Positions 18,068 through 34,391 of a stretch of DNA of 35,770 nucleotides are shown here, one piece after another. The translations under genes and the position numbers were made by a program. Location of the stretch: contig CBDUCI010000002.1 of NCBI GenBank assembly GCA_965365605.1, positions 1 through 35,770 of the forward strand, read 5' to 3'. The notes under the pieces are model-generated. The model searched no databases. It had not been told where the DNA came from and saw nothing but the letters and a program-made list of their open reading frames with translations. How positions within the stretch are numbered: the first letter of the stretch is position 1; each line of letters opens with the position of its first letter. The stretch is from an uncultured bacterium. Its GTDB lineage: Bacteria; Gemmatimonadota; Gemmatimonadetes; JACCXV01; JAHWKZ01.

Positions 18068-19219
18068 ATGATGCGCGCACTTTCGGGCCGAAAGACCAAC
18101 CCCCTGAGCAATGAACGCGGGACCTCCGTGATCCTGGTGGCGATCACCATGACCGCGCTCCTGTCGGTGGTCGCGCTAGCGGTCGACGTGGGCATGCTGC
18201 TCAACTCGAGGAGCGAAGCTCAGCGCGCCGCCGACTCGGCGGCACTAGCCGGTGCCGGCTCACTGATTGTCGCCCCAGACGACGAGCCCCGCGCGCGAAA
18301 CACCGCCATTCAGTTTGGGAGTCTGAACACGGTCCGAAAGACCGCGGTAACGGTCTTGCCCGAGGACGTTGACGTTGATCTTGCGCAAGGCCGCGTGACT
18401 GCGCGGGTGCGCCGGACAGGGGATCGCGGGAGCGCGGTGGCGACTTGGTTCGCCAACGTGTTTGGCGTCAGTGAGGTCGATATCGCCGCGACCGCTACGG
18501 CCCAGGTGCAACCAGCCGGCCGGGCGACATGTGTGAAGCCGTTTGCGATCCCGGATCAGTTTTTGGATATCGATGGCGACGGCGAGTTTGACAAGGGCGT
18601 CGACCAGTACGACCCGAACGTGCACGGCTACGGCGGCGATTGGCGCAACCCGGGTCATTCTGGTGACGACGGGCAAGGATACGTCAACGACTTCGGACGG
18701 CCAGTTGATCTCAAGCAGGGTGGTCCAACTTTTTTCCAGCCCGGCTGGTACTACCCGTGGAATGTGCCCAACGTCGATGATGCTCCCGACGTAGGTGCCG
18801 ACGAGTACCGGTGGAACATCAAAAACTGTAATCCTGCCATCATCTCGATCGGTGAACAGTACCAGATCGAGACCGGGGACATGGATGGCCCCACTCGGTT
18901 GGGTGTCACCGACCTCCTGGGTAAAGACTCGGGCGCATACTGGGACGACTTCACGAACTCCGTTGAAGGCAGCGCATGGGCTCCCAACTGGGAGGGTGGT
19001 CCGCGGGTCGGCATCATCCCGGTGTTCGATCCGTCACGCGATTTCAACCCCGGCAAGAAGCCGGTCGAGTTCACGAACTTTATCGCCGTCTTCTTCGAGG
19101 ATGTTGTGGGAGGCGGTTACAACCAGCAGGTCATTGCACGGATCATGTTTGCGTCGGGCATCGGTGGCGGCAGTGGCGGCACCGGTCCCGGACTCAAATT
19201 CGTGCAACTGGTCGAGTAA
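18068..19219 (+). CDS. tadG: TadG-like pilus assembly protein (no vWA domain)
   Basis: NERGTSVILVAITMTALLSVVALAVDVGMLLNSRSEAQRAADSAALAGA is a TadG-type N-terminus. It sits between the secretin and tadZ. Confidence 0.75.
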   Translation: MMRALSGRKTNPLSNERGTSVILVAITMTALLSVVALAVDVGMLLNSRSEAQRAADSAALAGAGSLIVAPDDEPRARNTAIQFGSLNTVRKTAVTVLPEDVDVDLAQGRVTARVRRTGDRGSAVATWFANVFGVSEVDIAATATAQVQPAGRATCVKPFAIPDQFLDIDGDGEFDKGVDQYDPNVHGYGGDWRNPGHSGDDGQGYVNDFGRPVDLKQGGPTFFQPGWYYPWNVPNVDDAPDVGADEYRWNIKNCNPAIISIGEQYQIETGDMDGPTRLGVTDLLGKDSGAYWDDFTNSVEGSAWAPNWEGGPRVGIIPVFDPSRDFNPGKKPVEFTNFIAVFFEDVVGGGYNQQVIARIMFASGIGGGSGGTGPGLKFVQLVE

Positions 19220-19235
19220 CCAAGCGAGGTACCCC

Positions 19236-20534
19236 GTGACCGATAACACCCCCATCAGCGGCGCCGTCATATCGACGGACCCCAAGTTCCGGGCCGTCCT
19301 TCACGGCAACGGCGATGGTGAAGCACAACCGGTCGAGGTGGCGTTTGAGATCATCGTCCCCTTCGCCGAAGTCAGCCACGGCCACCTCGAGGAGCTGAGA
19401 GTCGTCCAACCCTCGATCGTGTTCATCGATCTCGAGGACGACCCGATTCTCGGTTGCAAGCTGGCGCAGTTCCTGGTCGAGACGAACCCGGCGCTGCGGT
19501 TGGTCGCGGCCGGAACCGATGGATCACCGGAGTTCCTGATGACGGTGATGCAGGCCGGGATCAGTGAGTACCTACCCAAGCCGGTCACGGAGGACGCGCT
19601 GGTGGCGGCGATCGGCCGCGTGAGTCGAAAGCTCGGCGCCAAAGTGACCCAAAGCGCCGGCCCGGCTCGACGCGAGCCCGGTAAGTTGTTGGCTTTCTTT
19701 GGCACCAAGGGCGGGTCCGGTTCCACGACCGTTGCCACGAACCTGGCGATCCAGGTCCACCGCATGACCGGCAAGCGCACCGTGCTCGTCGACCTCGATC
19801 TCGAGCTCGGTGAGATCGCCCTTTATCTCGGTGTCGAGCCGCGGTTCAACTTCGTCGATCTGGCCAAGAACTTTCACCGCATGGATGCGGGGTTGCTGGC
19901 CTCGTTTATCGAGTGCCACGATTCCGGCGTACACCTGCTGTCCGCTCCGTATCATCCGGAGCGGGCGGAATCGGTGACCGCCGATCACGCCAAGCAGATT
20001 ATCCAGTTCTTGAAGCAACACTACGAGTACGTCTTCGTCGACGTGTCGAACTCATTCTCGGCGCGGACGTTGGCAGCTTTTGAAAAGGCCGACGAGGTGT
20101 ACTTGATCGCGACCGCCGACTTGCCGTCGTTGCGCAACATCCAGCGTTGCCAACATCTGATCGGTCGGTTGTCCAACATCGGTGAGCTGCGGTTGGTCGT
20201 CAACCGCTATCACCCCGACTGCGACATCACACTCGAGGATGTCGAGAAGTCGATCGGGATGGAGATCTATTGGGCCCTGCCGAACGATTATCAGTCGGTC
20301 ATCTACGCTATCAACACGGGTCAGCCGGTCATCCTCGATGACGCCAGCCCCTACACGCACGAGCTCGAGGCTTTGGCCGCCAAAATGACCGGCCTTCCTA
20401 GCGCCGGCTCGCATCGCAAGGGGTGGTTCTCCCGCAAGGTGGTGGATCCCTTGAAGAGTTTCCTTGGTTCGGAGGCCAATGAGGAAGAAGCCCTCATGCT
20501 GCCACCGGCCGTAGTCGGAGGTGAGCGCGCGTGA
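19236..20534 (+). CDS. cpaE: TadZ/CpaE: atypical receiver domain plus ParA/MinD-like ATPase
   Basis: Receiver-like N-domain (IVFIDLEDD...YLPKPV). Deviant Walker [22 protein letters not shown] 19236 is in frame with the track ORF 18795..20534, whose 5' part overlaps tadG and is rejected. Confidence 0.85.
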
Positions 20535-22030
20535 GCGATAACAAAGATCCGTACACGATCCCGCTGTTCTCGGAAGAGGGCGCGGTGAACAGGGAGAAAC
20601 TGCCTTGGGACAGCGCCGACGACGGTGGTGCCGAGGCAGGCGCTACAGCGACGGAACCCCTCGAACCGGTGAGGTTCGATCCGGACGAGTTCGATCCGGA
20701 GATGGCTTCGATATCGCCCGATGGCATACATCGGGGCGATGACACTACACACGAGATCAAGAGCCGGATTCACAAGCTGCTGCTCGAAAGGCTGAACCTC
20801 ACCAATCTGGATCAGTACGATCAGGATCAAGTAGTGGCCGAAATCCGGAAGGTCGTCCAGGGGTTGCTCGACCAGGAATCGGCACCGCTCAACTACGACG
20901 AGCGCGAGGCCTTGGTAGAGCAGGTCTTGCACGAGATTTTCGGTCTCGGACCGCTCGAGCCGTTGCTACAAGACCCGACGGTTTCCGATATCCTCGTCAA
21001 TACGTACGATGACGTTTTCATCGAGCGCGATGGAAAGCTCGAAAAGACGGACGTCCGGTTCAAGGACGATCGGCACTTGTTGCAGGTCATCGACCGGATC
21101 GTGTCTGCCGTGGGACGTCGAATCGACGATTCGAGTCCGATGGTTGATGCGCGACTTGCCGACGGATCGCGTGTAAACGCCGTCATTCCGCCGCTGGCGA
21201 TCGATGGGCCGCACGTTTCGATTCGTAAGTTTAAGAAGGATGCGTTGTCGGCAGAGGACCTGCTCCGGTACGACACGCTGACGCCTCAAATGCTGGAGCT
21301 CCTTCAGGGTATCGTCAAGGCGCGCCTCAACACGCTTATCTCGGGCGGTACCGGCTCGGGTAAGACGACGCTGCTCAACGTGCTGTCGGGCGCGATCCCG
21401 GTGACCGAGCGGATCGTGACGATCGAGGACTCGGCCGAGCTGCAGCTTCGTCAGCCGCACGTCGTGCGGTTGGAGACACGGCCACCCAACGTCGAGGGGT
21501 TGGGTGAGGTTCCGGCTCGTCAGCTGGTGATCAACGCGCTGCGTATGCGACCCGACCGCATCATCGTCGGTGAGGTTCGTGGCGCGGAGGCGGTCGACAT
21601 GCTGCAGGCGATGAACACCGGACACGATGGCTCGCTGACCACACTTCACGCGAACGCTCCGCGCGACGCGGTGAGCCGCCTAGAAACGATGATCGCGATG
21701 GCAAACCTGAATCTGCCCGACAAAGCGATGCGACAGCAGATCGCCAGCGCGATGGACGTGATCATCCAGGTCAACCGCATGGCGGACGGAACACGCCGAC
21801 TGATCTCGATCTCCGAGGTCGTCGGGATGGAAGGCGACGTGATCACCATGCAGGACATCTTTGTGTTCGAGCGTCAGGGAATCGATGAGAATGGCAAGGT
21901 CATCGGGCAGTTCAAGGCGACCGGGATTCGGCCGCGATTCGCCGAGCAGCTCAAGACCTGCGGCATCGACCTGCCGACCGCCATGTTCTCGAACCTCGAG
22001 TACGGCCTCTCGACCAACGAGGAAGCATGA
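20531..22030 (+). CDS. cpaF: Tad secretion ATPase CpaF/TadA
   Basis: Walker [14 protein letters not shown], Asp/His boxes ([12 protein letters not shown]; [12 protein letters not shown]; [12 protein letters not shown]). GTGA overlap with tadZ. Confidence 0.95.
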
Positions 22031-23022
22031 TGGATCGACTTCCGCCGAACGTGATGCTGGCGATCCTCGTGTTCGCAGCGGTGGCGTGTGCGGTCATCGT
22101 CCTCGCTGTGTTGTGGGAGTGGTGGGGTGACCGGAGGCGTCAGCGTGACCTGGCCCGGCGGCTGGGAAGCGTCGAACCCAGCGGGGAGGGTCAAGGCGGC
22201 GATCCGTTCGGTGATCTCTTTAAGGAGGCGACGAACGCGGATGTCAAGTGGCTGCAACCGGTCGTAGCCCGTGTGCCTCATACGCGAGACCTGCAACATC
22301 TGCTCGACCAGGCCGACATGCCGTGGCAGGTTGGGACTTTCCTGCTGACCACGATCGGTGCGGCGATGGCCTTTGGTACGATGGCGCTGCTGATCACGAA
22401 CAACACGATGGTAGCGATCGCAGCAGCGACGCTCGCGTCAACGTTGCCATACGTCTACATACGGCGTCGCAAGACGAAGCGATTACGGGCTTTCGAAGAG
22501 TGCTTCCCCGAGTCGATCGACCTGCTGGGGCGCGCGATTCGAGCCGGTCACGCCTTCTCGACGGGGCTCCAGATGGTGGCCGATGAATCCCCAGAACCGA
22601 TCGCCGGAGAGTTTCGTCGAGTCTTCGAGGAGCAAAAGTTTGGTTTGAGCATAGACGATTCGCTGCTCGCGCTGGCCGATCGGATAGAGCTCGTCGATAT
22701 GCGGATCTTTGTTACCGCCGTTCTTATCCAACGCGAGGTCGGTGGTAATCTGGCTGAGATCCTCGACAAGATCTCGTATACGATTCGTGAGCGGTTCACG
22801 ATCGAGCGGCAGGTCCGTGTGTACACCGCCCAAGGCCGCTTCACCGGATACCTGTTGGGTATCCTGCCGATCGCTGTTGGTTTCCTGATCTTCCTGTTGA
22901 ACGGCGAGTACATGACTGTGCTGTGGGAGAGGGACATCGGCCGTATGCTGATCTCCATTGCCGGCGTGCTCCAAGTCATCGGTTTCTTCGTAATCCGGAA
23001 AATCATCAACATCGAAGTGTAG
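22027..23022 (+). CDS. tadB: TadB (T2SS-F family inner-membrane platform protein)
   Basis: T2SSF-type repeat ([28 protein letters not shown]...) with flanking TM segments. ATGA overlap with cpaF. Confidence 0.9.
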
Positions 23023-23032
23023 GTAGAGAGCG

Positions 23033-23974
23033 ATGCTGTTATACCTCGTCGTCGGCCTAATCATGTTCTCCGTCATCGCGCTCGTGTGGGGCTTGGCTTC
23101 AATGGCCCCAGCACGGTCGCGCTCTATCTCGCGACGTCTGAGCGAGCTCCAGGCTGGAGGCGGCGATCGGTTCGCGATTCAACACGCCATGCAGCGTCGT
23201 CGTCGCCAGGAAAAGCGGGAGAAGATGCAGGGCATCCTCGAATCGTTTGGCGAGCGGGTCGCCCGCCGTGAGATCGATTGGGGGAAAACGCAAACGATGC
23301 TGATTCAGGCCGGCTACCGTGGTTCCGGGACGTTGCCGATCTACTTTGGTGTCCGGATCGTCGCCGCAATGACTCTCGCGGCCGGGGCCCTTTTCACAGG
23401 GACCGTCTCGGGCGCCGGACCGAGTACGATGATCGCCGTTGGTGTAGCCGGGCTCATCGGTTGGGTTATCCCGTCGATGACCGTGAAGCGGAAGATTCGT
23501 AAGCGGCAGAAGAGCATTCAGCTGGCGTTAGCCGATACGCTCGACCTACTGGTCGTCTGCGTGGAGGCCGGTCTCGGCTTGAACCAGGCGCTGCTCAGAG
23601 TGTCGGACGAGATCGAATACGTGAGTAAGATCATGAGCGAAGAGTTAATGGTGCTCAACTTCGAGATTCGGGCCGGTACACCGCGCGACGAGGCGATGCG
23701 GAATCTCGGTGAGCGGACTGGCGTCCCCGACCTCAAATCGTTGACCGCTATGCTCATCCAAACGGATCGCTTTGGGACCTCGATCGCCAAGGCGTTGCGC
23801 GTCCACTCGGACACGCTGCGCATCAAGCGTCGGCAACGGGCCGAGGAGGCCGCGGCCAAGACGACGATCAAGCTCGTCTTCCCACTCGTGTTGTTCATCT
23901 TCCCGGCGATGTTCGTGGTGATTCTCGGTCCGGCGATCATTCACATCACCGAACAGATGAAGGGACTGATGTGA
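23033..23974 (+). CDS. tadC: TadC (T2SS-F family inner-membrane platform protein)
   Basis: LADTLDLLVVCVEAGLGLNQALLRVSDE... T2SSF block, TM segments at both ends. Follows tadB. Confidence 0.9.
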   Translation: MLLYLVVGLIMFSVIALVWGLASMAPARSRSISRRLSELQAGGGDRFAIQHAMQRRRRQEKREKMQGILESFGERVARREIDWGKTQTMLIQAGYRGSGTLPIYFGVRIVAAMTLAAGALFTGTVSGAGPSTMIAVGVAGLIGWVIPSMTVKRKIRKRQKSIQLALADTLDLLVVCVEAGLGLNQALLRVSDEIEYVSKIMSEELMVLNFEIRAGTPRDEAMRNLGERTGVPDLKSLTAMLIQTDRFGTSIAKALRVHSDTLRIKRRQRAEEAAAKTTIKLVFPLVLFIFPAMFVVILGPAIIHITEQMKGLM

Positions 23975-24336
23975 AGATGTTGCGCGTCGTTAATGCGACC
24001 CGTGACCGCGAGTTGGGCAATCGCGTCTGGCTGGCGAACCGGTGGTGGCCGCGTCTTCGCGGACTATTGGGCCGGGGGCCATTGCAGCCGGGCTCGGGCA
24101 TGGTTCTGGAACCCTGCAAAGCGGTTCACATGTTCGGGATGAAGTACTCGCTCGACGTGGTGTTCGTGAACGCAGAGGGAGAAGTGGTCGCGATGTACCC
24201 CAAGCTGGACCCTGGTAAGCGGACGCCCTGGCATAAGCCGGCGCGAAAGGCGATCGAGCTGCCCGTCGGTACGCTGGCTGCGACCGGGACCGAGGTCGGT
24301 GACGTTCTGACTTGTCAATTTGCGGAGGCCGTCTGA
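23971..24336 (+). CDS. DUF192-family protein
   Basis: RLRGLLGRGPLQPGSGMVLEPCKAVHMFGMKYSLDVVFVNAEGEVVAM...AIELPVGTLAATGTEVGDVL fits the DUF192 (COG1430) pattern from memory. 4-nt overlap with the tadC stop. Confidence 0.7.
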   Translation: MKMLRVVNATRDRELGNRVWLANRWWPRLRGLLGRGPLQPGSGMVLEPCKAVHMFGMKYSLDVVFVNAEGEVVAMYPKLDPGKRTPWHKPARKAIELPVGTLAATGTEVGDVLTCQFAEAV

Positions 24337-25910
24337 TGAACGCTGGATTCGGAGTCAAAACCGCCGCTCCCAAGGCGGGATCACGCAAACCGCCGATTCC
24401 TGAGTCGATCGAAGAGACCGGCCTGCTCGACGAGGCGATCAGCGACCTGATAATCAAGACGCTCTACACCAAGGGCGCTCTCACCGGACAGGAGCTGAGT
24501 GAAGCCGTGTGCTTGCCGTTCCGGTTGCTCGACGATCTCTACCACGATCTGCAACATCGCCAGTTTCTTGAGGTTCGCGGAACCCAAGGCCACGGCCGTG
24601 GCGGCTACGTGTACGACCTCACCGGTCAGGGACGAGATCGGGCACGCGAGGCGATGATTTCGAATCAGTACGTTGGACCGGCTCCGGTACCGATCGACGT
24701 GTATCGAACCTGGGTCGAGGCTCAGACGATTCGCAAGGTGCATATCACCGTCGATCGGATCCAATCGGGTTTTGGTCACCTGGTACTGGACCCGGCATTT
24801 ATCGAACACCTCGGTCCAGCGATCAACTCGGCGAAATCGATGTTCCTCTACGGTGACTCCGGCAACGGCAAGACCAACATGGCGGAGTCGATCGCCCGGA
24901 TGTTGGGTGGTGACATGTACGTTCCCTACGCGGTGGACATCGAGGGGCAGATCATGATTACCCACGATCCGGTGTACCATCGGCCAAAAGCGGACGAAGC
25001 GGTGACCGTGTCCGTCGACGGTGAGGAGTCGACCCTACTAGAGTCGGCGCCCACGTACGATCGACGGTTCGCCCGCGTCGCGCGTCCGGTGGTGTTCACT
25101 GGTGGCGAGCTCACGCTGGAGCAACTCGATCTGCAGTACGATCCGACGGCCAAGGTGTACCAGGCACCGTTCCAGGTAAAGGCCAACGGTGGGGTGCTCA
25201 TTATCGATGACTTCGGCCGGCAGCAAGTACGACCGCGTGATCTGCTCAACCGATGGATCGTCCCGCTTGAGAAGCGGATCGATTTTATGACGTTGCACAC
25301 CGGCCACAAGTTCCCGGTGCCGTTCGATTGCCTGCTCATTTTCGCAACGAACCTGAATCCGTTGGATCTCGTGGATGAGGCTTTCCTGCGTCGGATTCAC
25401 TACAAGATTCATGTGCCGAGCCCGGACTACGAGCAGTTCGTTCAGATTTTCCGGCGGGTCTGCGTTTCGAGACAGATACCGTTTGTGGCGGGTCGCGTTG
25501 CGTACATTTACCGCCAGTACTACGAGCCGAACGGTATCTCACCTCGATCGTGTCACCCACGGGATATCGTCGATCACTTGTGCGATTCGGCCCGATATCT
25601 GGGGACCAAGCCGGAGTTGACGGTTGATCTGCTCGACCACGCATGCAAGTCGTACTTCCTCGACATGCCGGATGAAGATTACGTCGTCGATCCGTTAGAG
25701 TTTATGGGGGATCAGCGGGCCCACGCGGCCGCAGCTATGGCGATGACGGTGACCCATGGCGGTTCGGGACACGGGGAAGAAACGCCCCCGGCCGAGTCGG
25801 TCGAAGCCGGTGGTGTGGACGAGGTGCCAGCAACCGAGGGCGAGCCGGTGGTGGCAACCGAGGACGAGCGAGCACCCGGGCAGCCGCCCGGTAGCGCACC
25901 CGCGCCATGA
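24336..25910 (+). CDS. AAA+ ATPase of unassigned subfamily, with an N-terminal ~170-aa domain and an acidic/Pro-rich tail
   Basis: Walker A LYGDSGNGKTNMAE, Walker B GGVLIIDDFGRQ, sensor-1 LLIFATNLNP, DEAFLRRIHYKIHVPSPD. The ATG overlaps the DUF192 TGA (TGATG). Confidence 0.8.
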   Translation: MNAGFGVKTAAPKAGSRKPPIPESIEETGLLDEAISDLIIKTLYTKGALTGQELSEAVCLPFRLLDDLYHDLQHRQFLEVRGTQGHGRGGYVYDLTGQGRDRAREAMISNQYVGPAPVPIDVYRTWVEAQTIRKVHITVDRIQSGFGHLVLDPAFIEHLGPAINSAKSMFLYGDSGNGKTNMAESIARMLGGDMYVPYAVDIEGQIMITHDPVYHRPKADEAVTVSVDGEESTLLESAPTYDRRFARVARPVVFTGGELTLEQLDLQYDPTAKVYQAPFQVKANGGVLIIDDFGRQQVRPRDLLNRWIVPLEKRIDFMTLHTGHKFPVPFDCLLIFATNLNPLDLVDEAFLRRIHYKIHVPSPDYEQFVQIFRRVCVSRQIPFVAGRVAYIYRQYYEPNGISPRSCHPRDIVDHLCDSARYLGTKPELTVDLLDHACKSYFLDMPDEDYVVDPLEFMGDQRAHAAAAMAMTVTHGGSGHGEETPPAESVEAGGVDEVPATEGEPVVATEDERAPGQPPGSAPAP

Positions 25911-26635
25911 ACGACCGCAAACCCCGGATCTCGGATCGACGGGGCGAGTACGACGAGGTGACCTATCGCGAGGCGCTACGGTCGCTCGGTCTGTTCGCTC
26001 CGGTGATGCTCAATGACATCCATCGCGCCTATCGATCGCGCGCCAAGCAGATCCATCCCGATCGGTTTGCGGCTAACGGTGGTTACGATGAGGCCACCCA
26101 CCGCATCCAGAAGCTAAACGCTGCCCATGACTACGTGATCCACTTCTACGCGAAGTTCGAGAAGTCACAGGGCCGCATCGCTCGCCATCACATGCCACCG
26201 GGACAAGCCGGTTCAATGAACCCGTTGTTCGAGATGCTCTTGCTCCCGATCGCGGCCGTCTACTCGCTAACGACGGTATTGGCGGCGGTACCGGCAGCGC
26301 TGCTCGACCGCTTTAGCTTCGAGGACGACGAGGACGATCCGGTCAAAGAGAACGCAACCGATGTGAACGTGAGTGGTGGGGACGCCAAGGAGCAGCGAGA
26401 CATGACGCCGTCTCGCGAGGGGTGGCTCGTCGTCGGGCCGCACGTGATGGCGCTCGTCTTGTTCATGCTCGTGGAAGCATCAGGGATCGCTTCACCACTC
26501 TTCAAGTGGTGGGTAGGGCTTTCGCTTTTGATCATGTTATCGACCGACATCGCCAGCCGTGTCACGGGCGAGGAGAATCCTCTGCGGGATCACCGCGCGT
26601 TTGGCCGCGTGGACGCTTTCGTCCGCGGCCTCTAG
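25907..26635 (+). CDS. Membrane-anchored J-domain (DnaJ-like) protein
   Basis: J-domain YREALRSLGL...IHRAYRSRAKQIHPDRF...IQKLNAAHDYV with an HPD tripeptide. Three hydrophobic segments (LLLPIAAVYSLTTVLAAVPAALL; VVGPHVMALVLFMLV; WWVGLSLLIMLS). ATGA overlap with the AAA+ gene. Confidence 0.75.
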   Translation: MNDRKPRISDRRGEYDEVTYREALRSLGLFAPVMLNDIHRAYRSRAKQIHPDRFAANGGYDEATHRIQKLNAAHDYVIHFYAKFEKSQGRIARHHMPPGQAGSMNPLFEMLLLPIAAVYSLTTVLAAVPAALLDRFSFEDDEDDPVKENATDVNVSGGDAKEQRDMTPSREGWLVVGPHVMALVLFMLVEASGIASPLFKWWVGLSLLIMLSTDIASRVTGEENPLRDHRAFGRVDAFVRGL

Positions 26636-26692: not shown

Positions 26693-26719
26693 ACCCGACC
26701 TCGAGTCGGGTGTTTTTTT
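26693..26719 (+). terminator. Strong intrinsic terminator closing the tad-DUF192-AAA-J transcription unit
   Basis: ACCCGAC-ctcga-GTCGGGT perfect 7-bp stem followed by G-TTTTTTT, 58 nt after the J-domain gene stop. Confidence 0.8.
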
Positions 26720-26773
26720 GTTCGGGGGAAGCGAAAGGCGACCTCTGAGCGTCCCACTATATTGGATAATTCG

Positions 26774-27658
26774 ATGTCGATGCTCGAAGATGACTCGTCG
26801 CGCTTTGCGTTGCTCTTTTCGGTGCTTCTGCACGCGCTACTGGTAGCCCCGGTCTGGGGATGGTTGGTGAGCGTCAAGCCGGTAGCGGCCGGAGCCGATG
26901 CGCCGCCGATGCAGTTCACGTTTGTGGAGGCCCGGGACGCACCGGAAGAGCCGCCCGACGCACCCACCCCGCTCCTCTCGACGCGGGACCAGCGAGCCGC
27001 GCAGGAGAGCGCCCCCTCAGAGCTGCCAGAGGGTTCGGCGTTCCAGTTGGGCCAAACGCCATTGCCGGTCGCCCCGCGGGCGCCGGGGTCAGTGGCTAAC
27101 GCGGCGCCGACGGTTCCGCAGCCACCATCGAGCAACAACCGCGCGTCGGGCACTGAGTCGGTCGAGCGGCCGGCCGGAGAGGGCCCGATGACCCCCAGCG
27201 GCGACGCTCGGCTGGCGGTTCGTGAAAAGCCGATCGGACTGGCTACTGGTCGTTCGTCGAACCCCGGAAGCGGCGCCAGACTTCCGGCCCCAGAGGTCGA
27301 TCAGCGACTCACACGGGCTCGCGCGGGCAGCACGTTTAGCCTGAACACCACCGCTTGGGAGTATGGACCTTACATGGCGCGCCTCAAAGCGCAGATCGAG
27401 GAGCACATCTTCCCACCGCCGGCGTTCTACTACGGCACCGCCGCGTGGGCGACACGGGTGCGATTCCGGATCGCACCTGACGGCCGGCTCATGTCACTCG
27501 AGCTACTCGATCACCGTGGCGTCCCCAATCTTCAGTACGTGGCGACATCGTCGATCGAAGCGGCCGCCGATTATGAGCCGCTGCCGCCGGGTTTCCCCGA
27601 ACCGCTGCTGGAGATCACCGGGAACTTCTACTTCAACGTGGCTCCACCGGGCCGTTAG
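26774..27658 (+). CDS. tonB: TonB-family energy transducer
   Basis: N-terminal anchor FALLFSVLLHALLVAPVWGWLV, a Pro-rich spacer (PEEPPDAPTP...PLPVAPRAP...PQPPSS), and a C-terminal TonB-like domain (WATRVRFRIAPDGRLMSLELLDHRGVPNLQYVATSSIEAAADYEPLPPGFP). The start must lie after the terminator at 26693-26719, so ATG 26774 (or 26780). Confidence 0.75.
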   Translation: MSMLEDDSSRFALLFSVLLHALLVAPVWGWLVSVKPVAAGADAPPMQFTFVEARDAPEEPPDAPTPLLSTRDQRAAQESAPSELPEGSAFQLGQTPLPVAPRAPGSVANAAPTVPQPPSSNNRASGTESVERPAGEGPMTPSGDARLAVREKPIGLATGRSSNPGSGARLPAPEVDQRLTRARAGSTFSLNTTAWEYGPYMARLKAQIEEHIFPPPAFYYGTAAWATRVRFRIAPDGRLMSLELLDHRGVPNLQYVATSSIEAAADYEPLPPGFPEPLLEITGNFYFNVAPPGR

Positions 27659-27675
27659 CGCTCGGCGAGGGACGC

Positions 27676-28305
27676 ATGTTGGAGACACTGGGTCAGGGGG
27701 GCATCGTGATGATCCCATTGGCGCTGAGCTCCGTGCTCGCGCTGTGGGTGATTCTGGATCGAGCCTGGCGGCTCCAGCGCCGTCGGGTCCTGGTGCCGGA
27801 GATCGTGAGCGTGCTCGAGAGCCTGAGGAGGCCGTCCGACATTCCGCTCGCCCAGCTGATTTGCGATCGCAATCCTGGACCGTTCTCTACGATCGTCCAA
27901 GCCGCTCTCGACCACAAAGACCGATCTCGGGACGAGATCCGTGAGCGAGTGGAACATCAGGCTCGGCAGGAGATCGTTCACCTGGAGCGGGGGTTGGGAC
28001 TGTTGGAGACGATTGCCGCCATCGCCCCGTTGCTGGGTCTGTTGGGCACGGTCTTGGGAATGATCGAGGTCTTCGACGTCGTCGCACAGCAAGGTGCCGG
28101 TCAGGCTCAGGAACTGTCGGGTGGAATCTCCCAGGCGTTGATCACCACCGCGACCGGTTTGTCGATCGGCATCCCCGCTTTGGTCGCCTACAACTACTTC
28201 GTCGGCAAGGCCGAGCGGCTGGTACTCGATATCGAGGACCACACCGACCGTCTCATTCAATCCGTACTGCTTTTCCGCGAAACGGAAGACGACGATGCAT
28301 CTTGA
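27676..28305 (+). CDS. exbB: MotA/TolQ/ExbB-family proton channel
   Basis: Three TM segments with the conserved C-terminal block IAAIAPLLGLLGTVLGMI...GISQALITTATGLSIGIPALVAYNYF. Confidence 0.9.
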   Translation: MLETLGQGGIVMIPLALSSVLALWVILDRAWRLQRRRVLVPEIVSVLESLRRPSDIPLAQLICDRNPGPFSTIVQAALDHKDRSRDEIRERVEHQARQEIVHLERGLGLLETIAAIAPLLGLLGTVLGMIEVFDVVAQQGAGQAQELSGGISQALITTATGLSIGIPALVAYNYFVGKAERLVLDIEDHTDRLIQSVLLFRETEDDDAS

Positions 28306-28714
28306 GCCCGGTCGTCGCCGCAAGACGCTGATCAACGTCACCTCGCTGATCGACGTCGTCTTCCTGTTGCTCATCTTCTTTGTCGTTACGTCCACCTTTC
28401 TCGAGCAGCCCGGGCTCGATCTAACACTACCCGAGGCCGGATCGGCGGAGATGACCGTGCGCGAACAGGTCACGCTCGGTGTCGACGCCGACGGTGAGAT
28501 CTTTCTGAATGGCGATCCGGTCGTGCTAGAGGGATTGGCGGACCGAATCGAGCAGGCGCTCGAACGAGCGGAAACCGAACGCGTGTTGCTCGAGGCGGAC
28601 TCGCGCGTTTCGCACGGTCGTGTCGTGGCGCTGATGGACGCCGCCCGGCGGGCCGGCGCCGGGGCGCTGCTGGTAGCGACGCGTCCCCCCGAAGAAGCCG
28701 CCCGAGAACCGTGA
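28295..28714 (+). CDS. exbD: ExbD/TolR-family protein
   Basis: INVTSLIDVVFLLLIFFVVTSTF (conserved Asp in the TM helix) plus a periplasmic domain. Overlaps the exbB end by 11 nt. Confidence 0.9.
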   Translation: MHLEPGRRRKTLINVTSLIDVVFLLLIFFVVTSTFLEQPGLDLTLPEAGSAEMTVREQVTLGVDADGEIFLNGDPVVLEGLADRIEQALERAETERVLLEADSRVSHGRVVALMDAARRAGAGALLVATRPPEEAAREP

Positions 28715-31700
28715 GCCAACCGGCGCGAACCTTCGTCGCGGCGGCGGTGTTGGGGGGCGTCTTGTTTATCACATCACCAGGGCCGCTGGCGGTCGGACTG
28801 CTGATCGCTGCTTTGGTCGCGTTGGTGGTCGGCCTCGCCCGACGTTGGCCCCGGCGATGGGGATTACGCATCGCCCACCTGCTGTTGTTCGCGTATCTCG
28901 CGGCATGGGCCTACACGCACCTCGATGATTGGCGTCTGGCTCGCGGTGGCGCGGCGACTTCGACGCGGTTGGAGACGGCCAAGCTTGAGCGGGTGGCTGC
29001 GGTTCTTGGCGGGCGGCTCCAGACTGATCGCGCGCTGGCGGTTCGCGTTGCCGGTGCATTGGCGGCCGAGAGCGCGACCGGCGGACGCGACATGGTGCAG
29101 GACCCAGAGCTTTTCGTGTCGTTGGGTCGCGCGGTTCCGCCACTGCTACCGACCGGCGTCGGGATCGAGGTGTACGACGCAGCCGGCAGCTTGCGCGCAT
29201 GGTGGGGTGAGCCACGAGGTGGCCGGCTGCCGGCCGATTCGGTGACGGCGCCACTGACCGGTGGCGTAGTGCGTCGGCCAGCTGGGTACACGTTGGCTTA
29301 CGCCGCCGTTCCCTGGAGCGTCGAGTCGGACAGTTTCGTTGTCGCGGTAAAGGACCTCTGGGCGGTCGAAACCCCGTTGCGGCGAGGTGTCGGCGAGACC
29401 GATTTGATGCTGACGACGCTGGAACGAGGCGAGGACCTCGCTTTTCGTGTTCTGACGCTCGGTGACGAACCCGAGCAACGCTCCCCATCGGCAGCCATTC
29501 GAGGGTCGGATGGAGAAGCGGTGGCGTCAGTCGTGAGCGAACGGTTCCTGCTCCGGCGCTATCTGGCCGAACGGAGACGCGAGGCGCAGCGGATGCTGGC
29601 TGGTCTCTATATGTGGCCGCTTTTGTGGGCGACAGGCGCGATCTGGCAGCTGGCGCGTCGCCGTCGCGAGGGTGCGAGCTTGACGCGCTGGGCGATCGGT
29701 CTCACCGGACAGACGATCGTCTTGATCGGGCTTTGGGGGTTCGTGATCGAGTCCCGTTTCGCGGCGCGGTTGTTGCCTGAAACGTGGTTTAGCCCACTGA
29801 CGTTTGCAACCGATTCCTTGGGACCCGGCGGCCGCTCGCCTGGGGATTTGATGTTCACATCCGCGATCGTGTTCTTGATCGTGTTGTCGGCCTACACCCT
29901 TATTCCAGAATCGCGAAGACGGCTGTCTGCAGTGTTTGTGGTGCCCGTGGTGGTCGGAGCTGCAGCGTTGGTACTCCAGGTCATGCCAGCTATCGCGACG
30001 ATCGTCGAACGCGCGCTGCAGAACATGAGCCCAACCGTCTTCTTTAGCTCGACGCTCCTATTTTCGCCGCCATATCTGCTGGTGTTGTTGAGCTTCGCAT
30101 TGTTGAGCGCGGCGGCGATCGGAGCGCTGGCGATAGTCTTCCGGTGGCTCAACATGCCGACCGGCAAAGGATGGGTGCTGGGTGCGGCGACGGTAACTGC
30201 GGCGATGCTCGCTCTAGCGGCTTTCAATCTCCAGAGTGCCGCCATGGCGGGCCGATTCTCGGCGATCGGGCCGTTGCTTGGCCTCGGTGCGGTTGGTGCG
30301 GCTGCGCTGATCGACGCTGCCGGGCGCCGGCGGGACGACTTGCAACCCGCTTCCAGTGTTCGTTTCTCACTCGTGGCGGTGGGGCTAGCGTGCTTGCTCA
30401 CGTTCCCGATCATGACATTCGCGCGGGTCCAAGCGGCGCACGAGCTACTGGTGGAGCGAGCCGAGCGGATCGGCGAAGCCTCGACCCAGTGGCTTCAGTA
30501 CACGATGACGCGGACGATCGAGTATTTGGCGACTTCTCCGGAGGTCAAGCGTGCGATTCAGGATTCGAATCGCGACGCCGCGTTGCTGCTGTGGAACCAG
30601 AGCCCGCTTCGGACGCTCGACTTTGCATCCGGCCTGTACCTGTTTGATGCGGATGGTTCGACGGTTAGTCAGTTCGCGCTGTCGGCTGTCGACTTGTCCG
30701 GTCGCGCTCGGCGCTACGCGCGGGAAACATCGGTTCCAAGAGTCGAGATCGAAGGCGCGCCGCGCGACCGTGGCATCTGGTGGGCGATCGTTCCGGTGAA
30801 CGAAGTCGTCGACGAGGTCGAGCAGCGCGTTGGCGCGGCGGTCGCGATGACGACTGGAGCGCTCGAGCTCAGAGAGCCGGCGACCGGATCGGCGTTTGTC
30901 CTCACGGACCTCTTGGCTGGTTCCGGGCCACCGGCCAACGCGCCTCAGATTTCCGCGCTGGGTTCCGATGACGTGCCACCGCCGGGGACGTTGCTGACGA
31001 CTGTCGTCCGCGAGGGTGAAGAGCCGGTCCAGCTCGCGATGCCGCTCGAACCGCTGTTGCCCACCGCACGCTCCTACGCGGTATTTGGTTTCGTCGGGGT
31101 TATCTTCGGAATGTTGTTGGGGTTGATCGAACGTTGGGGAGACGTGCGTACCCGAGGTCGATGGTGGGCCAGTCTCAGGGCCGAGAATCCGTTGCACTCC
31201 TTTCGCCTGCAACTGCTGTTGGCGTTTCTCGCGGTGGCGGCCGTGCCGCTCACGTTGTACGCGGTGCTTGGCTATCGCGCGACACGCATAGAACTGCAAG
31301 AGGCGACTCGTGGCGCGGCGGCCGAAGCGCTTGCCGCCGCCAGCCGCATGGTCGTTGATGACCCCGCGCTCGAACGCGGAACGCCGCGTCTCTTGACCGA
31401 CCGTTTGCGAGACATCGCCGAGGTTCTGCAGCAGGACTTGGTTCTCTATTGGCGCGGTCGAACGGTGGCGTCCAGTCGACCCGAGATTTTCGCCTCAAGA
31501 CTGTTTGCCGATCGCATGCCAGGGGAAGTGTACGCGGACTTGTTCGCCGTTCGCCGACCGCTGGCCTTTGATTCGATGGTGCTCGGCGAGCGATCGTTTC
31601 TGGTTGCTTACCAACCGCTGGTTGAACCCGAAGCGCCGGCGGGCTACGTGCTCGCGACACCGTTGTTGATCCGCGAAGACCGCGCTCGTGCCGACTTGCA

Positions 31701-33015
31701 GCGATTGGGCGAGGGCGTGTTCCTGCTGTCGGCGTTCTCGCTGGGGTTTCTGTTGATCGTGAGTGGTGGGCTCTCGAGATACATGGCGCGCCCGCTATCA
31801 GCGCTCGAGCGTGGTACTCGACAAATCGCCGCCGGAAGGCTCTCATACCGTCTTCCGTCACCCGCTCGACGCGACGAGTTCGGACGCCTACAGGGAGCGT
31901 TCAACGCGATGGCCGAACAGCTCGACGTCGGTCAGCGAGCGCTCGAGCGAGAGAAGTCCAGGGTCCAGGCGATTCTGGCTTCGGTCGGTGCCGGCGTGGT
32001 AGCGCTCGACGAGCGGGGCAAGATCCGGCTGCTCAACGATCGGGCGGCTAGCCTGCTAGGCCTCGACCCGCGTGATGTCGTTGATCGCCCGGTGCGCGAA
32101 CTCGTTGATGACGACGGCGAAGCGAGCTCGTTCTGGCGCGCGGTTGGGATAGAGTTCGACCGTGGGGGAGGAGACGATCACGACCTGGTGGTTCGCCGAA
32201 ACGGCGAAGAGCGGCATTACCACATGGTGGGAACGGCGTTGCGCGATGCCGTCGGACGAGAGCGGGGATTGGTGGTGGCGTTCGAGGATATCACTGCCAA
32301 CGTGCAGTCGCAGCGCGTTCTGGCGTGGGGTGAGATGGCCCGACAAGTCGCGCACGAGATCAAGAACCCACTTACGCCGATGAAGCTTTCCTTGCAACAC
32401 CTCGAGCGGACGGTCGAAGATCGCCCGGACGATTTCCATCAAGTGTTTCACTCCAACCTCGACTTGATCTTGGCCGAGGTCGAACGATTGGAGCGAATCG
32501 CCAGCAACTTCGCTCGCTTCGCGGTGCCCGATCCGGCCGTCAGTGAACCGTTTGATGCCGAATCCATCGCCCGGGAAGTGGTGGCGCTGTTCGAGCCCGG
32601 CGAAGACAACGTGGTGTACTCGCTCGACGTGGTCGGACAGCCACGGGATCTGCGCGGTGACCCCGAAGGGTTCCGCCGCATTCTGGTCAACCTGCTGCAG
32701 AACAGTCGCGAAGCGGTGCTGGCTGCAGACGGTGGGAGCGTGAGCCTGCGACTCGATTGGAAACGCGAATCGGGGTGGGCACGAGTCTCGGTCGTCGACG
32801 ATGGGGTCGGCCTGCCCCCAGACGGGATCGATCGGCTGTTCGAGCCCTCGTTTTCGACCAAAACGCGCGGTACCGGGCTCGGTTTGGCGATCACGCGCCG
32901 GATCGTCGAGGCGTGGGGCGGGACGATCGAGTACGAGCGCCGCTCCGAAGGAGGCACCGCGATCCACGTTCGTCTGCCATCCGCCTCGATCGAGGACGAC
33001 GTCACAACGCCGTAG
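28711..33015 (+). CDS. Very large polytopic sensor histidine kinase (multi-TM sensor regions, then HAMP-PAS-HisKA-HATPase; NtrY-like H-box)
   Basis: At least a dozen hydrophobic segments and two to three large loops in the first ~1000 aa. HAMP (RPLSALERGTRQIAAGRLSYRLP...FGRLQGAFNAMAEQL), PAS (VQAILASVGAGVVALDERGKIRLLNDRAASLLGL), H-box MARQVAHEIKNPLTPMKLSLQHL, N/G boxes (LVNLLQNSREA; DDGVGLP; GTGLGLAI). GTGA overlap with the exbD stop. Confidence 0.9.
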   Translation: MSQPARTFVAAAVLGGVLFITSPGPLAVGLLIAALVALVVGLARRWPRRWGLRIAHLLLFAYLAAWAYTHLDDWRLARGGAATSTRLETAKLERVAAVLGGRLQTDRALAVRVAGALAAESATGGRDMVQDPELFVSLGRAVPPLLPTGVGIEVYDAAGSLRAWWGEPRGGRLPADSVTAPLTGGVVRRPAGYTLAYAAVPWSVESDSFVVAVKDLWAVETPLRRGVGETDLMLTTLERGEDLAFRVLTLGDEPEQRSPSAAIRGSDGEAVASVVSERFLLRRYLAERRREAQRMLAGLYMWPLLWATGAIWQLARRRREGASLTRWAIGLTGQTIVLIGLWGFVIESRFAARLLPETWFSPLTFATDSLGPGGRSPGDLMFTSAIVFLIVLSAYTLIPESRRRLSAVFVVPVVVGAAALVLQVMPAIATIVERALQNMSPTVFFSSTLLFSPPYLLVLLSFALLSAAAIGALAIVFRWLNMPTGKGWVLGAATVTAAMLALAAFNLQSAAMAGRFSAIGPLLGLGAVGAAALIDAAGRRRDDLQPASSVRFSLVAVGLACLLTFPIMTFARVQAAHELLVERAERIGEASTQWLQYTMTRTIEYLATSPEVKRAIQDSNRDAALLLWNQSPLRTLDFASGLYLFDADGSTVSQFALSAVDLSGRARRYARETSVPRVEIEGAPRDRGIWWAIVPVNEVVDEVEQRVGAAVAMTTGALELREPATGSAFVLTDLLAGSGPPANAPQISALGSDDVPPPGTLLTTVVREGEEPVQLAMPLEPLLPTARSYAVFGFVGVIFGMLLGLIERWGDVRTRGRWWASLRAENPLHSFRLQLLLAFLAVAAVPLTLYAVLGYRATRIELQEATRGAAAEALAAASRMVVDDPALERGTPRLLTDRLRDIAEVLQQDLVLYWRGRTVASSRPEIFASRLFADRMPGEVYADLFAVRRPLAFDSMVLGERSFLVAYQPLVEPEAPAGYVLATPLLIREDRARADLQRLGEGVFLLSAFSLGFLLIVSGGLSRYMARPLSALERGTRQIAAGRLSYRLPSPARRDEFGRLQGAFNAMAEQLDVGQRALEREKSRVQAILASVGAGVVALDERGKIRLLNDRAASLLGLDPRDVVDRPVRELVDDDGEASSFWRAVGIEFDRGGGDDHDLVVRRNGEERHYHMVGTALRDAVGRERGLVVAFEDITANVQSQRVLAWGEMARQVAHEIKNPLTPMKLSLQHLERTVEDRPDDFHQVFHSNLDLILAEVERLERIASNFARFAVPDPAVSEPFDAESIAREVVALFEPGEDNVVYSLDVVGQPRDLRGDPEGFRRILVNLLQNSREAVLAADGGSVSLRLDWKRESGWARVSVVDDGVGLPPDGIDRLFEPSFSTKTRGTGLGLAITRRIVEAWGGTIEYERRSEGGTAIHVRLPSASIEDDVTTP

Positions 33016-33191: not shown

Positions 33192-33401
33192 ATGATCAAC
33201 CTTGGAATCGAGCATGTGGCAAGATCATGTAAGTCAATTTACTGTAACGAATTAGGTCAGGACTTGGCGGAATATGCGATTCTCGCCTCGCTCATCGCGA
33301 TCGTGGTCATCGCCGCCGTAACCCTGGTTGGGGGGACACTGACCGCCACGTTCAACACCATCGCCAGCGCCATGACCGGCGTCGCCGGCGGCGGGAGCTA
33401 G
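33192..33401 (+). CDS. flp: Flp-family pilin (flp3)
   Basis: MINLGIEHVARSCKSIYCNELG|QDLAEYAILASLIAIVVIAAVTLVG; ends ...VAGGGS. Confidence 0.85.
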   Translation: MINLGIEHVARSCKSIYCNELGQDLAEYAILASLIAIVVIAAVTLVGGTLTATFNTIASAMTGVAGGGS

Positions 33402-33424
33402 ATCACCGTGGGGTTTTCGACTAC

Positions 33425-33447
33425 CCCCGGCCGTCGCGGAGCCGGGG
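33425..33447 (+). terminator. GC hairpin after flp3 (no U-tract)
   Basis: CCCCGGC-9 nt-GCCGGGG perfect 7-bp stem, 24 nt after the flp3 stop. Confidence 0.3.
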
Positions 33448-33548
33448 CCGCCCCCATCTTGCCACCGGCCTCGGCCTCCCGCGGCGGCAACTTCTTTCCA
33501 CTTTTTTGGAATAGAATTGCTATCGACTGGAATTACCGGACCATTTCG

Positions 33549-33577
33549 TTGACTCTTTTTTCTCGACGTGGTACCGT
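33549..33577 (+). promoter_or_regulatory. Possible sigma-70-type promoter for flp4-6
   Basis: TTGACT (33549-33554), a 17-nt spacer, then TACCGT (33572-33577). The same TTTCGTTGAC 10-mer is present as at 33111-33120. Confidence 0.35.
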
Positions 33578-33680
33578 AATCTAACCCGCATTGTCCTCTG
33601 GTCTCCGCGCCAGGCCCGCGAAGCGACGGGAAGATCCCACGGGGGGCAGTAACAAACCGAACCCGGAAAGGCTGGTGTTC

Positions 33681-33941
33681 GTGACTTTTTTGCTAGCTCA
33701 GGCCAGCCGGCTCCTTTGGGGGCCACGGCCCCTTCGGGGGCCAACCGACGACCGAGAAAGCCCGACCCCCCGAGACGGGTGCGGCTTGGACGAAAGCGGG
33801 CAGGATCTCGCGGAGTACGCGCTCCTGATCTCGCTCATCGCGCTCGTCGTCATCGGGGCGGTCACACTGCTCGGAACTCAGCTCATCGCGGCGTACAACA
33901 ACATCACCGCGACGCTGAATTTCGGCGGCGGTGGTTCTTAG
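33681..33941 (+). CDS. flp: Flp-family pilin (flp4), start codon uncertain
   Basis: ...LDESG|QDLAEYALLISLIALVVIGAVTLLGTQLIAAYNNITATLNFGGGGS. No ATG lies in frame upstream. Candidate starts are GTG 33681 (GGAAAGG 9 nt upstream), GTG 33675, TTG 33786 (no SD) and TTG 33591. The mature part is most similar to flp1. Confidence 0.7.
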   Translation: MTFLLAQASRLLWGPRPLRGPTDDRESPTPRDGCGLDESGQDLAEYALLISLIALVVIGAVTLLGTQLIAAYNNITATLNFGGGGS

Positions 33942-33991
33942 GTTCTTAACTCGCGAAGTAACAAAACCTAAACTCGGAGGGACCCATCCCG

Positions 33992-34174
33992 ATGAGCCTC
34001 TGGACTCGCTTTTGGGCCGACGACTCAGGTCAGGATCTCGCGGAGTACGCACTCCTGGTTGCGCTGATCGCGCTCGTCGTGATCGGTGCCGTCACCTTGC
34101 TCGGCACTCAGATCCAAACCGTGTTCAACAACATCCCCGCAGCCCTCGCGGGCTCGGGTGGTGGTGGATCGTAG
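33992..34174 (+). CDS. flp: Flp-family pilin (flp5)
   Basis: MSLWTRFWADDSG|QDLAEYALLVALIALVVIGAVTLLG...GSGGGGS. GGAGGG SD upstream. Confidence 0.9.
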   Translation: MSLWTRFWADDSGQDLAEYALLVALIALVVIGAVTLLGTQIQTVFNNIPAALAGSGGGGS

Positions 34175-34208
34175 TCAACCGCAACTCAACCCGGAGGGGA
34201 CCCATCCA

Positions 34209-34391
34209 ATGAGCCTCTGGACTCGCTTCTGGGCCGACGATTCCGCTCAGGACCTAGCCGAGTACGCGCTGTTGATAGCGCTAATCGCGCTGGTTGTGAT
34301 CGGTGCTGTCACCCTGCTTGGTACTCAGATCCAAACCGTGTTCAACAACATCACCGCTGCTCTCGCAGGTTCGGGTGGTGGTGGGTCGTAA
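34209..34391 (+). CDS. flp: Flp-family pilin (flp6), Ala instead of Gly at the predicted -1 cleavage position
   Basis: MSLWTRFWADDSA|QDLAEYALLIALIALVVIGAVTLLG...GSGGGGS. GGAGGGG SD upstream. 57 of 60 residues are identical to flp5. The track ORF from 34086 overlaps flp5 and is rejected. Confidence 0.85.
   Translation: MSLWTRFWADDSAQDLAEYALLIALIALVVIGAVTLLGTQIQTVFNNITAALAGSGGGGS

Follow-up and report, generated by a model that had tools for sequence, protein, structure and literature searches.

TonB-type motors power nutrient uptake, maintain the cell envelope in the form of the Tol system, and drive gliding. At their core is ExbB-ExbD or TolQ-TolR, a proton motor of 5:2 composition. In Ton-dependent uptake, the C-terminal domain of TonB binds the TonB box of TonB-dependent outer-membrane transporters, the genes of which are normally unlinked to tonB. 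The Tol-Pal system has as its hallmark the gene order tolQ-tolR-tolA in the company of tolB, pal, and cpoB. To our knowledge, signalling by TonB-type motors is understood solely through relays of a receptor and an anti-sigma factor. Here, we describe a tonB-exbB-exbD operon that runs on into the gene of a large sensor histidine kinase and lies between two loci for Flp/Tad pili. It was found in a stretch of 35,770 nucleotides (contig CBDUCI010000002.1, hereafter the window) from an uncultured lineage of Gemmatimonadota, a widespread and almost uncultured soil phylum. The window is GC-rich (about 62%), and its relatives show that this lineage is the source. The explanation that we favour, with somewhat less than even confidence, is that the Ton motor now serves the sensor kinase as a co-opted accessory input. 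The literature searched held no account of an operon that joins tonB-exbBD to a kinase, nor of how Tad pili are regulated in Gemmatimonadota.

Several described systems resemble parts of this arrangement. The PocAB-TonB3 set of Pseudomonas aeruginosa (PA2983, PA2982, and PA0406) is needed for pili and the flagellum to be expressed and localised. These homologues of ExbB, ExbD, and TonB are tied to pili and not to uptake, by a mechanism that is unexplained (PMC5285504). The likeness to the window would lie in Ton homologues with a pilus link instead of an uptake role. Unlike the operon studied here, the Poc genes are split over two loci, are not coupled to a kinase, and concern type IVa pili and the flagellum, and in the clade of the window the pilus genes persist without the Ton cassette. 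In the Agl-Glt machinery of Myxococcus xanthus, the proteins GltG and GltJ, with domains like the TonB C-terminal domain, bind periplasmic partners and not nutrient receptors (PMC11761067). What is shared is a motor of the TolQR/ExbBD type that acts via inner-membrane proteins with such periplasmic domains. The window differs by a single ExbB and a single ExbD joined to a kinase, with no three-paralogue stator of the AglR/AglQ/AglS type and no Glt-like genes. PocAB-TonB3 and GltG/GltJ are the closest analogues in function and set a precedent for TonB-like proteins outside uptake, and neither is coupled to a histidine kinase.

The Tol-Pal system belongs to the same motor superfamily, and the C-terminal fold of the TonB-like protein fits TolA domain III as well as it fits TonB. 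In contrast, the gene order in the window is A-Q-R, tolB, pal, and cpoB are missing, and the cassette is dispensable in several lineages. TonB-dependent cell-surface signalling differs in that its transducer-type receptor, FecR-like anti-sigma factor, and ECF sigma factor are all absent from the window. Because the defining components of each are absent, the set is not a Tol-Pal system, an Agl-Glt machine, or a receptor/anti-sigma system of cell-surface signalling. Among kinases, the LuxQ sensor of LuxPQ binds an accessory protein, LuxP, and the PDC-type periplasmic modules of the kinase in the window resemble the sensor domain of LuxQ. The accessory proposed here would, unlike LuxP, be an energised, membrane-anchored protein of the TonB type, and we know of no kinase with such a partner. 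In Pectobacterium, a two-component system that adjoins the flp/tad genes regulates them (PMC3767616). Both kinases differ from that of the window, which has three periplasmic modules, about ten membrane helices, and no cognate regulator nearby.

At the level of the motor, the set of the window resembles the Ton system proper. The gene order tonB-exbB-exbD, the channel threonines of ExbB, and the membrane aspartate of ExbD are all alike, as are a membrane helix with an SxxxH motif, an extended linker, and a small C-terminal alpha/beta domain. The set of the window is, however, very divergent (ExbB is 24% identical to E. coli ExbB and 22% to TolQ, and the TonB-like protein stays under Pfam cut-offs), it has Gln in the column of ExbB E176, its C-terminal domain is unusually conserved in the clade, and the operon continues into a translationally coupled histidine kinase. 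ExbB, with three membrane helices, matches PF01618 (E=2e-34) and ExbD matches PF02472 (E=5e-32). The ExbB channel residues T125 and T158 are invariant and align with T148 and T181 of E. coli ExbB, and the ExbD membrane residue D20, invariant in 18 of 18 sequences, aligns with E. coli D25. The roles of the ExbD aspartate and of the ExbB channel threonines have been described (PMC5903867). With these residues in place, the motor is apparently functional. The position of E. coli ExbB E176 and TolQ E173 in the third membrane helix is occupied by Q153 in the window (nt 28132-28134). Gln is found here in most kinase-linked ExbB proteins, with Glu in L015, L016, and L029 (L numbers denote related loci), and the five outgroup proteins carry Glu in four cases and Val in L034. 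A functional shift in kinase-linked ExbB is therefore possible. In the metagenome-assembled genome (MAG) of L003, exbB is split by a frameshift (8979-9589), as a pseudogene or by assembly error, with the TonB-like gene, exbD, and the kinase gene intact.

The label tonB is weak when the protein is judged by its own sequence. Pfam gave no match at E<=0.01, and TonB_2 and TonB_C appeared only below threshold (E~0.01-0.02) in a search up to E 10. The best NCBIfam match was the TolA C-terminus (2e-5), and the best match of a profile against PDB sequences was the C-terminal domain of Helicobacter pylori TonB, at E=0.08. A word-based homologue search with the C-terminal domain returned close Gemmatimonadota fragments only. 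The N-terminal membrane helix (aa 8-35) carries S16xxxH20 within FALLFS16VLLH20ALL; all 18 sequences compared have H20, and 16 of them have S16, which is replaced by Ala in L015 and L016. A variable linker rich in Pro and Ala follows, and then the C-terminal domain (aa ~166-294, nt 27269-27655). For this domain an AlphaFold model of moderate confidence was obtained (pLDDT 66), based on an alignment of database fragments that was shallower than the 18-sequence locus alignment. The 16 best Foldseek matches of the model were TolA or TonB C-terminal domains, at probability 1.00 and a TM-score of up to 0.72. A hidden Markov model of the domain drew in 2156 cluster representatives at E<=1e-3 and 349 at E<=1e-10. 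Most of these proteins have 270-320 aa and end in this domain, and several exceed the Pfam TonB_C cut-off (for example P0170, 34 bits vs 24.6). The assignment is thus confirmed, as far as motif, predicted fold, and TonB_C-positive relatives can do so. On these features and the motor residues, the proteins of the window are placed in the TonB/TolA and ExbB/ExbD families. The gene shares its operon with the ExbB/ExbD motor, although two loci keep it without exbBD. One of the nearest relatives found with the C-terminal domain (E=1e-30) is P0161. This protein of 610 aa combines a Ser/Thr protein kinase domain with a C-terminal TonB_C-like domain and so is another case of a TonB_C-like domain joined to a signalling kinase.

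To place the operon among its relatives, about 45 related loci were compared: 6 from look-ups of kinase homologues, 25 from species-representative genomes, 2 reached via a homologue of the TonB-like protein, and 14 from metagenomes. The metagenome loci were seeded with the TonB-like protein, and the proteins of the window were mapped by tblastn. The order CpaE-CpaF-TadB-TadC-DUF192-AAA-like-DnaJ-like-TonB-like-ExbB-ExbD-kinase recurs, and the full cassette with the kinase is present in about 30 Gemmatimonadota loci, the kinases of which are 50-60% identical to that of the window. An in-frame GTGA or ATGA joins exbD to the kinase gene in 17 of 18 unique genome loci, as it does in all 12 further loci, and this overlap is taken to be translational coupling. 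Upstream of the TonB-like gene stands the hexamer TATATT, the sole copy in the window with both strands counted. It is invariant in all 18 aligned upstream regions and in every further locus with upstream sequence. The arrangement is more than chance, as the order and the 4-nt overlap recur in about 30 loci and TATATT is invariant. In the subclade of the window, 10 nt separate the end of TATATT from the ATG, so that the mRNA is probably leaderless or nearly so. A GTG at 26657 was rejected as the start of the TonB-like gene; it would cross the terminator, and the relatives begin at the ATG.

An intrinsic terminator closes the operon of tad locus 1, the AAA-like gene, and the DnaJ-like gene, and is kept in close relatives (L004, L007-L009, L028). 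This upstream terminator, the TATATT element of the unit itself, the recurring order, and the conserved exbD/kinase overlap together argue that the TonB-like gene, exbB, exbD, and the kinase gene form one conserved transcription unit, apart from both tad locus 1 and the pilin genes of locus 2. The initial annotation of the window had taken the GTGA overlap as an argument for co-expression. The terminator, the conserved promoter-like element, and the presence of the overlap in about 30 loci bear this out. It had also named synteny in relatives as a check on a link between motor and kinase. The coupling of exbD to the kinase does recur in the relatives, and the reading of motor and kinase as partners survives for this reason.

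Three comparative signals point to a link between the TonB-like protein and the kinase. The best-conserved sequence of the region is the stretch of 125 residues at the C-terminus of the TonB-like protein, with 71-83% identity inside the kinase-linked clade, compared to 64-72% for ExbB, 55-67% for ExbD, 56-60% for the kinase, and 70-78% for CpaF. In outgroup triples of the same three Ton genes, this domain is instead the least conserved part (34-54% vs 53-62% for ExbB), and across the clade boundary it is 29-47% identical. Such a shift in rate is the pattern expected if a specific partner was gained when the kinase arrived. The TonB-like gene has also been kept after loss of the motor: in L024 and L027, exbB and exbD are gone and the TonB-like domain is intact, and in L027 the stop codon of the TonB-like gene again overlaps the kinase start. 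Moreover, the clade-specific gene was never seen apart from the kinase, in 14 of 14 metagenome loci and about 20 genome loci.

The last signal is covariation with gene loss. This comparison started from 15 non-redundant kinases that come with a TonB-like gene, among which 619 positions show conservation of at least 85%. Six of the 619 are altered in no fewer than four of the five kinases that lack the cassette, and five of these six (W74, G80, P144, Y193, and R224) fall in periplasmic module 1, which holds 82 of the 619. When 500 control sets were drawn from cassette-bearing kinases, none gave five sites in module 1 and 0.2% gave three. Both loci with the TonB-like gene alone (L024, L027), the kinases of which are among the 15, keep all five residues.

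Five loci (L001, L002, L017, L019, and L026) have the kinase gene after the DnaJ-like gene and no Ton genes. The cassette-less kinases are scattered among cassette-bearing ones on the kinase tree, which implies at least four independent losses if the tree is followed. The cassette was deleted in these loci, and its absence is not the primitive state: TATATT still stands ahead of the kinase in L001, L002, L017, and L026, and L017 carries a scar (9900-9965) that leads from TATATT and the opening codons of the TonB-like gene (ATGCTCCGTGACCGC, MLRDR) straight into the last codons of exbD and the GTGA junction. Tad locus 1 is complete in the cassette-less loci (secretin, CpaE, CpaF, TadB, and TadC), and the second tad locus downstream is itself variable among relatives. 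As at least four lineages dropped the cassette yet keep complete tad genes and a full-length kinase, the pilus machine does not need the motor, and the kinase can apparently work without it. In L019, two opposite-strand open reading frames (ORFs) of 251 aa and 94 aa (2785-3721, minus strand) lie between the DnaJ-like gene and the kinase gene in place of the Ton genes.

The kinase belongs to a small family confined to Gemmatimonadota. Its C-terminal 415 residues hold a HAMP-PAS-HisKA-HATPase_c core (aa 1021-1424, nt 31771-32982; Pfam), as in a class I sensor histidine kinase, with the phospho-acceptor His in HisKA and N and G boxes in HATPase_c. The H, N, G1, and G2 boxes are readable as HEIKNPLTP, NLLQN, DDGVGL, and GTGLGL. 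The H-box is of the NtrY/AtoS kind, and among NCBIfam models AtoS comes closest (aa 960-1428). Pfam matches nothing in the first 1000 residues. About 10-11 membrane helices, three periplasmic alpha/beta modules, and a block of six membrane helices (Table 1) are indicated by hydropathy and by an AlphaFold model (pLDDT 69.5) that can be relied on up to about aa 820. Foldseek matches of the N-terminus were dCache/PDC sensors (2p7j, 3lid, LuxQ 2hje, CpxA 8uk7, and CitA; probability 0.93-0.99, E 0.01-0.3). The modules also resemble dCache/PDC sensors of chemoreceptors. The E-values are weak, all matches of this fold search are generic PDC/Cache sensors, and nothing in it pointed to a plug or signalling domain of a receptor.

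If the Ton motor does serve the kinase, the following sequence of events can be proposed. ExbB and ExbD, the motor residues of which are all present, would draw on the proton gradient to power the TonB-like protein. In the periplasm, the C-terminal domain of that protein would then act as an accessory input, on or through periplasmic module 1 of the kinase; this step is suggested by the rate shift, the retention of the TonB-like gene after exbBD loss, and the covariation. The kinase would integrate this input with the ligands of its other two PDC-like periplasmic modules, autophosphorylate at the NtrY/AtoS-like H-box, and signal to a regulator. Control of the flanking Flp/Tad genes by that regulator would be the last step, which is drawn from synteny. 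The kinase probably regulates these genes, by their synteny and by the precedent of Pectobacterium (PMC3767616). In a more specific and unlikely version, the TonB-like protein would be a probe powered by the proton motive force (PMF), and its contact with the outer membrane or an envelope partner would be read by module 1 and set Tad pilus production. If this holds, force or contact would enter two-component signalling with no TonB-dependent receptor, anti-sigma factor, or ECF sigma factor involved. The initial annotation had suggested that the stator serves the sensor kinase, possibly in envelope or surface mechanosensing. The first part of this suggestion has been somewhat strengthened by the rate shift, the retained TonB-like gene, and the module-1 covariation, whereas mechanosensing by the stator-kinase unit is pure speculation. 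Co-option of the motor would offer a simple and testable case of a proton-driven transducer that feeds a two-component system, and, if the link to the pili is true, a first handle on the regulation of Tad pili in Gemmatimonadota.

A number of observations weigh against a working link between motor and kinase. ExbB homologues fall into two groups, orthologues that are at least 65% identical and a second tier at 51-60% identity (from KSB1, Cloacimonetes, and unnamed bacteria). All five second-tier loci inspected hold a stand-alone triple of a TonB-like protein (290-298 aa), ExbB, and ExbD in a housekeeping neighbourhood, with no kinase, tad genes, or receptor within 8-10 kb. The triple of L034 stands immediately upstream of dnaX-ybaB-recR-pgsA-pgpA-cinA. 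These genes also come after the kinase or tad locus 2 in L003, L006, and L001, so that the triple occupies the same chromosomal site. As the triple stands alone in all five outgroups, once at this very site, its adjacency to the kinase and the tad genes could be historical for the most part. The cassette has been lost by deletion at least four times, and the cassette-less kinases keep their full length and architecture. The covariation is based on only four independent losses, module 1 was singled out after the covarying sites had been seen, and a sliding-window comparison of cassette-bearing and cassette-less kinases was, unlike the per-site test, not significant, as 11% of the controls reached the observed value. 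The support for the link is comparative throughout, and all relatives are metagenome-assembled contigs, from MAGs or metagenomes. A cognate response regulator was looked for in the window and none was found; the nearby NtrC-like regulator has an AAA+ domain and a Fis-type helix-turn-helix, with no receiver domain. Finally, the protein could be a working uptake TonB, as the receptor inventory covers loci and not whole genomes.

The most serious alternative is one that we regard as quite possible although doubtful. The set would be an ordinary Ton system, a general energiser for transporters encoded elsewhere, and the kinase gene would merely have landed behind it and would borrow its promoter and ribosomes, with no mechanistic link to the kinase or the pili. 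The stand-alone triples of the outgroups speak for this, as do the canonical motor residues, the breadth of the TonB-like family, and the repeated clean deletions that spare the kinase and tad genes. Receptors are, besides, usually unlinked to tonB. Neither the window nor any of about 15 relative loci with annotated genes includes one, and the initial annotation had laid weight on there being no receptor in sight; this weight is not justified, since a stand-alone and receptor-free setting is normal for the triple family and a missing neighbour receptor is uninformative. The simplest history suggested by these loci is that the Ton operon is the older resident, around which the kinase and tad genes arrived later. 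We infer that a stand-alone tonB-exbB-exbD operon upstream of dnaX, of a kind that is common in related phyla, received the kinase at its 3' end in one uncultured clade of Gemmatimonadota, beside the genes for Tad pili. If the link is merely historical, the locus would be a clean example of a gene that was grafted onto a housekeeping operon and outlived the deletion of its host genes. An ordinary Ton role leaves unexplained, however, why the C-terminal domain is most conserved solely in the kinase-linked clade, why a TonB-like gene was kept and re-coupled to the kinase after exbBD was lost, why residues of kinase module 1 decayed with gene loss, and why the 4-nt overlap of exbD and the kinase has persisted across about 30 loci. 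Co-option of the motor by the kinase remains our preferred explanation.

Two further roles for the motor, one in the pili and one in the envelope, are less probable. The initial annotation had raised the possibility that the motor energises an outer-membrane step of the pili. Such a PMF-driven motor could serve that or an assembly step, for instance via the secretin, as has been speculated for PocAB-TonB3 and PilQ. The unit is flanked by tad loci in the window, as it is in its close relatives, which fits a pilus role, as does the fact that tad locus 2 of relatives has no secretin of its own. PocAB-TonB3 is a precedent, and PilQ's N0 domain resembles the signalling domain of receptors (PMC5285504). 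We nevertheless consider a pilus motor quite unlikely. A complete tad locus 1 is present in five loci that have no Ton cassette, the second tad locus varies as well, the unit is set apart from tad locus 1 by a terminator and a promoter element of its own, and the triple is older than its association with tad genes; the lineages that lost the cassette and retained tad genes and kinase go against the proposal. Very unlikely, in turn, is an equivalent of TolA-TolQ-TolR that would serve outer-membrane integrity or constriction, with the kinase as a monitor of the envelope. The NCBIfam scores do lean towards Tol (TolQ 91.5 vs 85.9 bits, TolR 62.8 vs 46, and the TolA C-terminus for the TonB-like protein), the top Foldseek match of the C-terminal domain is TolA domain III, and a CpxA-like periplasmic fold is among the matches of the kinase. 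Yet all of these NCBIfam scores are far under the family cut-offs, PDB-structure profiles favour ExbD over TolR (67.5 vs 32.7 bits) and tie ExbB with TolQ, and relatives of the C-terminal domain pass TonB_C and not a TolA model. As the NCBIfam and PDB-profile results conflict, the motor was assigned to neither the Ton nor the Tol branch. The A-Q-R gene order also disagrees with a Tol system, tolB, pal, and cpoB are absent from the window and about 15 annotated loci, and the conserved order elsewhere leaves no room for them beside the cassette. Repeated loss is not expected of a Tol system, and L034 holds a second and more canonical pair of an ExbB/TolQ-like protein (241 aa) and ExbD at 19775-20672, 9 kb from its triple, so that paralogous motors coexist in outgroup lineages.

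Table 1. Positions of the genes and sequence elements in the window
Feature	Position	Strand	Basis or remark
TadE-like pseudopilin and TadG-like/VWA cluster	1784-6472	+	Pfam
MacAB-TolC-like efflux set	6547-9877	-	Pfam/NCBIfam
OEP/TolC-like protein	8504-9877	-	Pfam
NtrC-like regulator	12941-13927	+	Pfam
Two Flp pilin genes opening tad locus 1	14226-14682	+	
tad locus 1 (prepilin peptidase, TadE, RcpC, secretin, TadG, CpaE, CpaF, TadB, TadC, DUF192)	14746-24336		
Tad secretin	16499-18064		Pfam
AAA-like protein (~530 aa)	24312-25910	+	
DnaJ-domain membrane protein	25907-26635	+	
Intrinsic terminator	26693-26720	+	7-bp stem, 5 G-C pairs, then T7: GTTTTTTTGT
TATATT, -10-like promoter element of the Ton-kinase operon	26758-26763	+	Conserved
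TonB/TolA-type gene	26774-27658	+	294 aa, ATG start
exbB	27676-28305	+	209 aa
exbD	28295-28714	+	139 aa; ATG 11 nt inside exbB
GTGA, kinase start codon overlapping the exbD stop	28711-28714	+	Sequence
Histidine kinase gene	28711-33015	+	1434 aa, GTG start
Kinase periplasmic alpha/beta module 1	aa 50-317, nt 28858-29661		
Module-1 stretch with W74, G80, P144, Y193, R224	28930-29382	+	Per-site covariation
Kinase six-helix membrane block	aa 324-540		
Kinase periplasmic alpha/beta module 2	aa 548-780, nt 30352-31050		
Kinase periplasmic alpha/beta module 3	aa 859-985, nt 31285-31665		
First Flp pilin of tad locus 2, downstream unit boundary	33192-33401	+	Flp_Fap matches for neighbouring copies
Four tandem Flp pilin genes opening tad locus 2	33192, ~33750, 33992, ~34209 (span 33192-34391)	+	

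The layout in Table 1 was obtained by re-deriving the ORFs and by Pfam and NCBIfam scans of all sizeable ORFs in the window. The gene coordinates of the initial annotation proved exact, including the terminator, the overlap, and the gap of exactly 176 bp between the kinase stop and the first Flp pilin of locus 2. Its placement of the unit between two tad loci agrees with tad genes on both sides (14746-24336, and from 33192 onwards), and its statement that the window holds no TonB-dependent receptor, ECF sigma factor, or anti-sigma factor stands, as the Pfam scans found none of these domains and no Plug domain. The only outer-membrane proteins in the window are the secretin and the OEP/TolC-like protein, again as had been stated. 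An Rfam scan of the window gave zero matches.

The NtrC-like regulator upstream of tad locus 1 has neither the GAFTGA loop nor the Walker B Asp-Glu (it reads '...GTMYIHGIESL'); with these and a receiver domain absent, it is unlikely to work as a sigma-54 activator. The orthologue in L026 lies right after the kinase and DUF192 genes, ahead of Flp genes. Of CpaE/TadZ in the window, the MinD/ParA part alone is clearly readable. The third Tad-related cluster (1784-6472, plus strand) holds nothing but TadE-like pseudopilins and, at 2787-3968 and 5255-6472, a pair of TadG-like proteins that carry von Willebrand A (VWA) domains and could be tip adhesins.

The AAA-like and DnaJ-domain membrane genes follow TadC-DUF192 in every relative, and extra AAA-like copies stand after a second tad locus in L001 (18287-19570) and at the ends of L013 and L015. 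Both genes look like lineage-specific Tad accessory genes. Tad locus 2 is cut by the end of the window at 35770. In close relatives (L004 14441-24263, L007 14536-23029, L010, L011, and L012) it has the order Flp x4, peptidase, TadE, RcpC, TadG, TadG, CpaE, CpaF, TadB, TadC, and it has no secretin gene, whereas locus 1 has one. All Flp pilins of the window, the four of locus 2 and the two of locus 1, share the common core 'GQDLAEYALLIALIALVVI'.

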